Below, piece by piece: positions 1,409 through 2,764 of a stretch of DNA of 43,071 nt. Positions within the stretch are counted from its first letter, which is position 1, and the number at the start of each line of letters is the position of its first letter. Source of the DNA: Dehalococcoidia bacterium (GTDB lineage: Bacteria > Chloroflexota > Dehalococcoidia > Tepidiformales > Tepidiformaceae); the NCBI GenBank assembly GCA_031431695.1, contig JANPDX010000408.1, positions 1 through 43,071 on the forward strand, in the 5' to 3' direction. The notes below the pieces were generated by a model that saw only the letters and a program-made list of their open reading frames with translations, did not search any database and was not told where the DNA came from. Position numbers and translations under genes: made by a program.

Positions 1409-2764
1409 TTAGAACATCTCGGCGCCGTCGGCCATTCTGGAGTCGTCGGCAGCGGGAGGCTGGGGCAGGTCCTGGGTCGGCTTTTTCTCGGTGGGATCTA
1501 GGATGCACTCGAGCGAGTCGATCAGTCGGAAGACGCCTCCATCGAAGGGCTGGAGGTGGAAGACGATGCGCACCAGGCAGTCTTTCGCTTTGAGCTCGCG
1601 CGCTTTGTCGTAGACGGCCTTGTCCTTGGTGGTGTGCCAGTTTTTGTCAACGCTCATGCCGTACACGGTCGGCTTGTTCGGTGTGGCTCTGCTTTGGATG
1701 GCGGTGATCTTGCCGAAGGCCATGGTTTCTTTGATCTTCATTTGCTCGGGCGTGAGCGTGGGCGCCGGCTCGGCTGGGGGTTGGTATGGAGGCGGGTTAG
1801 GCCTGGTTGTCGGCGGCCGTCGCGGGGCTTCTGGGTCGAGTCGGTAGTTCTCGTGCTGCTGCTGGTTGGGTGGTTCGCGTGGCGGTACGGGGAGGGTGCG
1901 TTCGCGCTGCTGGGGTTGTGTATAAGTTACTTGGTTGGCTGGTACTGTTTCGGGCTCTTGGCCGCCTATGTTTTCAGCGTAGGCCTGGAGCTCTTCGGTG
2001 AGATTGCGCCCAGGGGCCTGTAAGGCTCCTTGAGGGGCTCTCGGGGGCGGTTGGATGGGATCAACGGTGATCGTGCGGGCTGGGGCCTGTTGTGTGCCTG
2101 CTTTTTGTCCGTGGGCGAGCTGTGTGGCCTGCTTTTTTGGCCTCCAAGTCGTGTGGGGTGGTGGCAGGGGTCGATCTTTGCGTTTCCAGAGGGTTTTCCA
2201 CGTTCCGTCTTTGGGGATCCAGACTTCGAGCTCTTCGGCCCATTCTGGTAGCCATTGGCTGACGAAGGCGCGATCCCAGCACTTGGAGAACATCGTGAGG
2301 TCCTTGCAGCAGCGCACCAGGGCGTTCGATTTGCAGCTCTCCGCGGCGTCGTCGTAGGTCATTCCTTTGCCGCCGAAGTAGGCCTGTCCGCCGCGGGCCT
2401 GGCCTGCGAACTTGCCGTTCACGAAGAGCGCCCAGGTGTGGGACATCTGTGTGCCGATCATGGTGGGGTTGTCGATCGGGACGAGGGCCCAGCCGCCGGG
2501 TTTGAAGGCGGCGTTGAGGCGTTCCCGGTATTTCATTTCTGGCACGTAGATGAGTCCGTCGGGGCGGATCTCGATCATGCCGTTGTCGATGTCTGCGATG
2601 AGGATCTCGATCTGCTGGGCGGTGAGAGCGAGCGTGCCGGCAGCGTTGTAGAATTTTTCGGGCAGTCCAGGTCCCGGTGGGATGCTCGCGAGCTTGTTCG
2701 GGGGTTCTCCTTGCTGGTAGTTGTGCGGTTCTTCTGCGGATGGCATTGGCGCCTGTGGGCTCAT
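1409..2764 (-). CDS. Mgm101-family (Rad52-like) single-strand annealing protein with Pro/Gln-rich linker and extra C-terminal domain (451 aa)
   Basis: [61 protein letters not shown] and LWKRKDRP match the yeast Mgm101 core as remembered. ATG at 2764 overlaps the upstream stop (ATGA). The 110 codons upstream in track ORF 1409..3094 are Arg-rich shadow. Confidence 0.8.
   Translation of the reverse strand: [451 protein letters not shown]

Follow-up and report, generated by a model that had tools for sequence, protein, structure and literature searches.

Can a protein family that has been described as eukaryotic belong to the recombination machinery of a phage? Mgm101 is known from fungi, amoebae, slime moulds and basal animals (PMC5176325, PMC3572067), and has been put forward as a candidate link, functional as well as evolutionary, between RAD52 and the single-strand annealing proteins (SSAPs) of phages (PMC13110880). 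The question is raised by a contig of 43,071 nt assigned to a Dehalococcoidia bacterium (JANPDX010000408.1, assembly GCA_031431695.1; the whole stretch is called the window here, and all coordinates refer to it). An earlier note, made from its letters alone, had taken the product of the minus-strand gene at 1409-2764 (hereafter the window protein) for a phage-borne homolog of Mgm101. The evidence presented below shows that the window protein belongs to the Mgm101 family of the Rad52 superfamily, and makes it highly probable that its gene encodes the SSAP of the phage, the activity being assigned by homology.

Family Membership, Fold and Contact Residues of the Core

In the profile comparison that the earlier note had proposed, the window protein matched PF06420 (Mgm101p) with 152 bits against a cut-off of 27 (E 1.5e-44), residues 38-201 covering profile positions 5-166 of 170, and this was the sole Pfam family at E ≤ 1. 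The Rad52_Rad22/Sak, ERF, RecT and Red-beta profiles gave no Pfam match to the window protein at the same threshold; judged from the predicted structure, kinship to these four is one of fold only. No PHROGs family was found at E ≤ 1 either. Among all PDB chains, phmmer retrieved yeast Mgm101 (9yi6 and four related entries) as the only sequence match, with an E-value of 1.1e-30, and all three motif alignments of the earlier note were reproduced against the deposited yeast sequence (9yi6_A), the third with IWLRKDRQ as its yeast segment. Because the profile score and the yeast match, with its motifs, coincide, the Mgm101 assignment holds far beyond chance.

Structure prediction with subsequent Foldseek searches, likewise suggested by the note, led to the same family. 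AlphaFold2 (AF2), supplied with a 30-sequence alignment, modelled residues 45-200 with a predicted local distance difference test score (pLDDT) above 90, and leader, linker and C-terminus with low confidence. The predicted core combines a Rad52-type fold (beta1-beta2 hairpin, beta3-beta5 sheet, alpha2/alpha3 groove) with the Mgm101-specific "C-lobe", a beta6-beta7 hairpin predicted at high confidence (residues 176-195; strands 176-183 and 188-195). When the core was compared with the PDB, the cryo-EM chains of Mgm101 (9yi6, 9yi7 and 9yi9) came first, with E-values of ~1e-17, target-normalised template modelling (TM) scores of 0.84-0.88, root-mean-square deviations of 1.8-2.2 Å and 39-40% identity; the superpositions span 159-167 columns, the Mgm101 chains comprising 158-180 residues. 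Human RAD52 was the next match (E ~1e-5, TM ~0.5-0.6, 14-16% identity). Against viral models, one Mgm101-like protein ranked first, followed by Rad52/59/22-like and ERF proteins.

Ten residues of yeast Mgm101 touch the inner strand of single-stranded DNA (ssDNA), as determined by cryo-EM (PMC13110880). Mapped through the phmmer alignment (PDB chain numbering equals mature numbering plus 9), nine of the ten are identical in the window protein: L115 corresponds to L71, Y117 to Y73, E120 to E76, E184 to E142, S188 to S146, N189 to N147, R193 to R151, K196 to K154, and W205 to W163. The tenth, K111, is conservatively replaced by R67. The essential vicinal cysteines of yeast Mgm101, C194 and C195, reappear as C152 and C153 within a shared RCCKD motif, and E142, R151, C153, K154 and W163 are practically invariant among 222 family members. 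In the model, the landmarks of the core are the beta1-beta2 hairpin with R67, L71 and Y73, the RCCKD helix (R151, C152, C153, K154), W163, and the C-lobe residues W193, R195 and K196, which are equivalent to yeast W235, R237 and K238. Yeast Y244 and Y246 align with P202 and H204, with W207 close by; in yeast, these five C-lobe residues and the basic loop K229-K232 are required in vivo.

The likeness to eukaryotic Mgm101 (S. cerevisiae; 9yi6-9yia) thus amounts to ~40% identity over a functional core of 165 aa and the same predicted fold including the C-lobe, but the two differ at both ends and in their genetic setting. The window protein lacks a mitochondrial presequence and the long disordered N-terminal region that localises the eukaryotic protein to the nucleoid: its leader (aa 1-37) is rich in Pro (27%), unconserved in the family alignment and predicted to be disordered (AF2 pLDDT 41-50), and contains no long region of the mitochondrial presequence type. 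Presequence and disordered region mark the eukaryotic subgroup and not the domain family, and their absence is expected in a phage protein. Whereas fungal and animal Mgm101 end a few residues past the core, the window protein adds a linker of 136 aa, a module of 82 aa and an acidic tail, and its gene lies in a tailed-phage operon with SSB, DnaB and RusA.

With the N-terminal domain of human and yeast RAD52 (1KN0, 1H2I, 5XRZ, 8BJM), the core shares the beta-beta-beta-alpha arrangement plus hairpin, and R151, K154 and Y73 are the counterparts of RAD52 R153, R156 and Y65 (PMC13110880). However, the two proteins belong to different Pfam families, and the window protein has no equivalent of the RPA- and Rad51-binding C-terminal half. 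Phage SSAPs such as Sak of lactococcal phage ul36, Erf of P22, Red-beta of lambda and RecT resemble it in the superfamily fold, in the early replication/recombination gene setting, and in the succession of an N-terminal annealing domain and a variable C-terminal partner domain; in some relatives of the window protein, an adjacent PD-(D/E)XK exonuclease completes the likeness. The window protein is set apart from these SSAPs by the C-lobe hairpin, which is stated to be absent from both RAD52 and phage SSAPs (PMC13110880), by the lack of any sequence-level match, and by the lack of an adjacent exonuclease.

A Large Branch in Phages and Bacteria

The earlier note had regarded an Mgm101-type protein in a phage as unusual. 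This is true of cultured and deposited phages, since tblastn with the window core and with the family consensus gave no match in 50,697 GenBank phage records (nor in 72,556 plasmids) and PHROGs holds no such family, but in metagenomes the family is large. A phmmer search of 1.84 billion cluster representatives returned 1,971 proteins at E ≤ 1e-3, of which 1,260 had E ≤ 1e-10; the search was exhaustive, and the 1,971 are clusters at 50% identity. A word-indexed search of 5.8 billion proteins yielded 30 matches, with the window protein as a singleton, and its exact sequence had no entry in a collection of gene positions. Among 171 proteins taken from both searches, 126 consist of a short leader, the core and a C-extension of at least 60 aa, while in 36 the protein ends with the core, as is typical of the eukaryotic architecture. 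The phage-type architecture also prevails in most of the best 150 of the 1,971 clusters.

At least 33 IMG/VR viral contigs carry the family, as found by a single-pattern, alignment-based scan; this type of scan was needed, a single-protein scan of IMG/VR giving no match. In GTDB genomes, at least 22 loci (L039-L060) were detected, all of them in metagenome-assembled genomes (MAGs) and none in an isolate, which are assigned to Kapaibacteria, Chlorobiota, Ignavibacteria, Bacteroidota, one alphaproteobacterium, Peribacteria, Trueperaceae and others. As the genome hits are all MAGs and GenBank phages and plasmids are devoid of the family, it is so far confined to uncultivated lineages. Two metagenomic relatives lie on phage contigs, one with an SPP1-type portal, a GpA terminase and DnaB, the other on a ~50-kb element represented by 13 contigs with integrase, Lar, methyltransferase and HNH genes, and a viral structure library contained one clear relative, A0A5Q2WBM1 (Foldseek, E 1.6e-18). 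Several MAG loci are flanked by cellular genes for OmpA, Ig-like surface proteins and cytochromes, and some bacterial copies may therefore be chromosomal. Reports of phage or bacterial Mgm101 members were not found in the searchable literature, which is no proof of absence; the phage/bacterial branch is apparently a large family that has not been described.

Two recurrent arrangements were observed among the MAG loci. In the Ignavibacteria-type loci L048, L051, L052, L054 and L055, a 173-aa open reading frame (ORF) precedes the Mgm101-like gene, and the pair lies between OmpA and large genes of cellular type, so that these copies may be chromosomal; the IMG/VR viral contig L018 contains this pair as well. 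Two of these MAGs are labelled Acidobacteriota and Syntrophomonadaceae although they share the Ignavibacteria-type context, which hints at binning errors. In the MAG CAXXFV01, four copies of a cassette are distributed over three contigs (L049, L050, L053, L060); the cassette comprises the Mgm101-like gene, a 228-aa ORF that overlaps the stop of this gene, and SSB. Either a mobile element in multiple copies or several prophages related to each other are suggested by this arrangement.

The phage gene could conceivably be a recent capture, i.e., a horizontally transferred Mgm101 of a fungus or protist, which would be uninformative about an ancestral phage family. Indeed, the best named matches of the word-indexed search are fungal Mgm101 proteins with 45-47% identity, accompanied in this range by unnamed metagenomic proteins. 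However, metagenomic proteins of phage-type architecture are equally close (41-48%), and the sequence of short leader, core and C-extension found in the window protein is the non-eukaryotic form. In a neighbour-joining tree of 222 cores (100 bootstraps), sequences of eukaryotic architecture formed a single cluster of 54, whose C-extended members include the named eukaryotes Willaertia, Fonticula and a chytrid, and the window protein was placed outside this cluster; its branch is long and lies close to six proteins of phage type (bootstrap 37). Hidden Markov models (HMMs) built for the two groups scored the window core at 196 bits for non-eukaryotes against 174 bits for eukaryotes; in leave-one-out controls, each of the 25 sampled eukaryotes scored at least 19 bits higher with the eukaryote HMM, and each of the 25 sampled non-eukaryotes at least 6 bits higher with the other one. 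Moreover, position 67 is Arg in the window protein and in most phage/bacterial members, but Lys in 47 of the 54 members of the eukaryotic cluster. A recent capture is therefore very hard to reconcile with the data and is considered extremely improbable; by the measure of its sequence, the window protein belongs with the phage/bacterial group and not with the eukaryotic one.

Linker, C-Terminal Module and Acidic Tip

The linker (aa 205-340) and the C-terminal part behind it (aa 341-451), which the earlier note had presented as additions that Mgm101 lacks, are indeed present but not peculiar to this protein: a C-extension is the rule in the phage/bacterial branch, and some protist Mgm101 proteins are also C-terminally extended (PMC3572067). 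The linker contains 21% Pro, 13% Gln and 11% Thr. Embedded in it is a conserved island (aa 247-265), which BLASTP aligns with ALPAPARDLRAEMNAHFQA of the related protein P0031 and in which AF2 places a short helix at 258-263; the island is a candidate for a short linear interaction motif or helix. P0031, a protein of 414 aa encoded on a 17.8-kb ENA contig, is also the one detectable homologue of the C-terminal module (phmmer 8.4e-12 to its C-terminus). Since P0031 and the window protein align collinearly from the core over the linker island to the C-terminal module, the fusion of core and extension is real and under selection, and not the product of a frameshift. No other homologue of the module was found in the 5.8-billion-protein index, in JGI metagenomes or in IMG/VR, whether single proteins or alignments served as queries, and scanning the JGI metagenomes with the alignment of window protein and P0031 gave no further match. 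Across the family, 180 C-extensions fell into one cluster of 44 members, many small clusters and 80 singletons; C-extensions thus appear variable and highly modular at the sequence level.

The window protein ends in ...DGAEMF and P0031 in ...ANDIPF. Tips of this acidic...hydrophobic-(P)F type, e.g., DDSDDIPF or DSDLPF, occur in 18 of 169 non-eukaryotic members (~11%; bearers include P0031, P0034, P0036, P0039, P0064, P0065, P0072, P0094, P0099, P0151, P0159, L015, L018, L033 and L044) and in 0 of 54 eukaryotic ones, and 14% of the non-eukaryotic members have a terminal Phe, compared to a Phe background of 2.9%. The C-terminal tip of bacterial SSB is DDDIPF, and T7 gp2.5 has a C-terminal Phe. 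These two share with the window protein an acidic C-terminal tail whose last residue is aromatic, in the context of ssDNA handling. Their DNA-binding part, however, is an oligonucleotide/oligosaccharide-binding (OB) domain, in contrast to the Rad52-type core of the window protein, and a corresponding role of the tail would be an analogy.

Gene Neighbourhoods of the Relatives

Phage recombinases of the Red, RecET, Erf and Sak modules are typically surrounded by genes for PD-(D/E)XK nuclease, Gp157, SSB and DnaB. A Pfam survey of two genes on each side of 52 non-redundant related loci revealed a PDDEXK_1 nuclease downstream in seven of them and DUF3799 upstream in one. Sipho_Gp157 was found downstream in six and upstream in five; SSB and DnaB recur near the gene, and RNase_T, NinG and HNH were seen in one case each. 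Within 6 kb, DnaB is present in 11 loci and SSB in seven. Six loci (L026, L028, L031, L032, L036, L057) combine a common type of C-extension with a PD-(D/E)XK nuclease immediately downstream (at a distance of at most ~80 nt), a pattern which would be expected from a partner-specific docking domain.

Proposed Function

Homology with yeast Mgm101 suggests that the core (aa 38-204) forms rings or filaments. In these, R151, K154, E142, S146, N147 and W163 would hold one ssDNA strand by its backbone at the floor of a narrow basic groove, with the hairpin R67/L71/Y73 wedged between bases and the beta6-beta7 C-lobe on the outer rim. The protein might thereby coat ssDNA at ends or gaps and pair the complementary strand in cis, as Mgm101 structures show. 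Together with the co-transcribed SSB, DnaB and RusA, annealing could serve recombination-dependent replication, concatemer formation and repair, and RusA would resolve the junctions. The disordered Pro/Gln linker presumably tethers the C-terminal module and the acidic, Phe-ended tail, which would most likely recruit partners such as SSB (of the phage or the host network), replisome proteins, or a nuclease that is perhaps supplied by the host, comparable to the C-terminal domains of Red-beta and RecT. In addition, the acidic tip may fold back onto the basic groove, by analogy with SSB and T7 gp2.5. Annealing activity, oligomerisation and the role of the C-terminal module are what we infer from these comparisons, and the module is probably a partner-recruiting device.

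An alternative view is that the protein is not primarily a recombinase, but a DNA-coating or nucleoid-type protein, a replication-initiation factor, or a decoy against host defence, for which annealing would be incidental. Yeast Mgm101 is a nucleoid component whose roles beyond annealing are under discussion (PMC13110880), and the window gene resides in a replication operon beside DnaB, SSB and a ParB-like protein. On the other hand, all residues of the annealing groove are conserved, relatives adjoin PD-(D/E)XK nucleases, Gp157, SSB and resolvases of the RusA/NinG type, and in the window RusA is encoded two genes downstream, which together leave a non-recombinase function improbable.

The proposal of an annealing protein with a partner-recruiting C-terminus has to face several observations that weigh against it. 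The basic loop KRKK of the yeast C-lobe (K229-K232) is not kept and reads KDGTWK in the window protein. For the C-terminal module, AF2 predicts a beta-beta-alpha-beta-beta order with a pLDDT of ~52, and Foldseek found no match at E < 0.08. The classical two-gene module of SSAP and exonuclease is incomplete here, because its second member could not be recognised in the window. The earlier note had seen no partner exonuclease nearby, and this was borne out: besides RusA and ParB_N, Pfam and PHROGs recognised no nuclease domain in the ORFs from 338 to 13194, and HMM and jackhmmer searches built from the PD-(D/E)XK neighbours of the relatives detected no homologue in the window. Lastly, the link between extension type and nuclease in the six loci may reflect common ancestry; common descent is an alternative because the cores of those phages are related as well. 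As a separate observation, an 896-aa protein of the structural module (37649-40339, plus strand) matches the staphylococcal-nuclease family PF00565 at its C-terminus (aa 786-892; 1e-14), the sole nuclease domain recognised in the window besides RusA and the ParB-like protein.

The missing exonuclease can also be accommodated by a different reading of the C-terminus, namely that annealase and SSB-like module are fused: residues 341-422 would form a small OB-like ssDNA-binding domain with an SSB-type tip, and the protein, annealing factor and SSB mimic in one, would dock on host partners of the SSB C-terminus (ExoI, RecJ, RecQ, PriA and others) and so replace a dedicated phage exonuclease. The predicted order of elements would suit such a domain, the weak Foldseek matches include the OB folds of eIF5A, PriB, SSB, RPA and Cdc13, and the endings of the window protein and its sole homologue, the restriction of SSB-like tips to non-eukaryotic members and the excess of terminal Phe described above point in the same direction. 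However, the low pLDDT and the lack of significant Foldseek matches are the reason why an OB fold is not asserted, the tip of the window protein lacks the Pro and represents a weak form of the motif, and a regular SSB is already encoded by the phage. We therefore regard an SSB-like module as rather unlikely, and prefer a C-terminus that recruits partners to the annealing core.

Origin of Mitochondrial Mgm101

The earlier note had connected the gene to the idea that mitochondrial DNA-maintenance proteins derive from phages. For Mgm101, the data agree with this idea without demonstrating it: the tree is star-like with deep bootstrap support below 10%, for which reason no direction of transfer between phages and eukaryotes is inferred from it. 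Corrected distances average 0.68 inside the eukaryotic cluster, 1.06 among the remaining sequences and 1.05 between the groups. As far as sequence distances go, eukaryotic Mgm101 would accordingly fit as a single branch of a broader radiation, but faster evolution in phages could yield the same picture. A phage origin of mitochondrial Mgm101 is plausible. In its full form, the scenario would be that Mgm101 is an offshoot of a large phage/bacterial annealing-protein family, taken by mitochondria from a phage or prophage, a route also proposed for the T7-like RNA polymerase, Twinkle and Pol gamma; its phage members would constitute an extra class of SSAPs with a C-lobe and interchangeable C-modules, and about one in ten members would plug into the host SSB network by an SSB-like tip. 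This combined scenario is offered tentatively, as possible and somewhat short of likely.

Gene, Start Site and Phage Context

The gene at 1409-2764 is an intact ORF of 451 codons plus stop, with the ATG at 2764 and the TAA at 1411-1409. Its ATG overlaps the stop of a 198-aa upstream ORF (ATGA at 2764-2761), whose codon-position GC pattern matches that of other window genes; together with the Shine-Dalgarno sequence GAGGA 6 nt upstream, this makes 2764 a credible start. A start at 3094, which would give an in-frame ORF of 561 aa, was rejected because of its overlap with the well-coded 198-aa ORF and the Shine-Dalgarno sequence and ATGA coupling at 2764. The features of the protein, its operon and the two phage marker genes are compiled in Table 1.

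Table 1. Features of the window protein, its gene, the early operon and the structural genes that identify the phage (window coordinates).
Feature	Position	Strand	Evidence
Coding sequence of the Mgm101-like, putative single-strand annealing protein	1409-2764	-	ORF and translation, PF06420, match to yeast Mgm101 9yi6
Shine-Dalgarno GAGGA, 6 nt 5' of ATG	2771-2775	-	read from sequence
N-terminal leader, aa 1-37	2654-2764	-	composition, pLDDT, alignment
Mgm101/Rad52-type annealing core, aa 38-204	2153-2653	-	Pfam, AF2, Foldseek, residue mapping, family-wide conservation
Linker, aa 205-340, predicted disordered	1745-2152	-	composition, low pLDDT
Conserved island in linker, aa 247-265	1970-2026	-	BLASTP against P0031
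C-terminal module, aa 341-422, not low-complexity	1499-1744	-	phmmer to P0031, AF2
Acidic/Pro-rich tail, aa 423-451, ending ...DGAEMF	1412-1498	-	sequence
RusA-type Holliday-junction resolvase	634-1377	-	PF05866 1.7e-10; phrog_140 3e-12
109-aa ORF, begins 6 nt past annealing-protein stop	1073-1402	-	ORF list
198-aa Cys-rich ORF (CAACGD...CTC), ATGA-coupled to annealing-protein gene	2761-3357	-	ORF list
ParB N-terminal-domain protein, 532 aa	3880-5478	-	PF02195 1.1e-23; phrog_3264 1e-29
GP88-family protein	5489-6205	-	profile match
DnaB-type replicative helicase	6947-8323	-	PF03796 2.6e-95; PF00772 2.9e-29
Phage SSB, C-terminus ...YDPPPDF	8440-8931	-	PF00436, 3.4e-17
RadC/JAB	8928-9446	-	profile match
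Large terminase	21687-23327	+	phrog_2, 3e-16
Major head protein	25765-26742	+	phrog_9953, 2e-12

Terminase and major head protein mark the contig as that of a tailed phage. Its terminase is ~24% identical to that of the nearest deposited phage, which points to a distant, uncultivated lineage. The early operon on the minus strand comprises, in the order of transcription, RadC/JAB, SSB, DnaB, the GP88-family protein, ParB_N, the 198-aa ORF, the Mgm101-like gene, the 109-aa ORF and RusA. The RusA domain occupies aa 115-202 of the longest ORF, so that the true start is probably internal. Of the replication/recombination block read from the letters by the earlier note, Pfam and PHROGs recovered RusA, DnaB and SSB; the 198-aa ORF, which had been labelled a loader, has no Pfam or PHROG match, and that label was not confirmed. 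The 109-aa ORF has no Pfam match. Neither tRNAs nor terminal repeats nor Rfam families were found in the window.

Other parts of the window gave additional observations. An ORF at 10956-11648 (minus strand) matches phrog_335, "phosphatase", at 1e-12 and has no Pfam match. The ~1.7 kb between the divergent early (minus) and late (plus) modules (~13200-14950) have the lowest GC content of the window (0.537 compared to ~0.61), with no convincing ORF and no Rfam match, and may hold promoters or an origin. The plus-strand module is opened by a GroES/Cpn10-like ORF (14959-15450), which matches PF00166 with 24 bits (cut-off 21.1) and is extended at its N-terminus by ~65 aa rich in Lys and Glu. On the plus strand, GC skew is positive on both sides of the switch in gene strand near 14.9 kb, and AT skew shifts from ~-0.3 to ~0; early genes are therefore C- and A-rich on the coding strand, and late genes G-rich.

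Significance

The broad phage/bacterial branch provides candidates for the link between RAD52 and phage SSAPs, and the origin of mitochondrial Mgm101 thereby becomes testable by phylogeny. Being compact and native to prokaryotes, the phage proteins should lend themselves to structural and mechanistic studies of Rad52-type annealing. They also represent a new class of recombineering candidates, which come from phages of poorly tractable phyla, e.g., Ignavibacteriota/Kapaibacteria, Chlorobiota, Bacteroidota and the Candidate Phyla Radiation. If functional, the SSB-like tips would constitute a different route by which an SSAP is coupled to the replication and repair machinery of the host.

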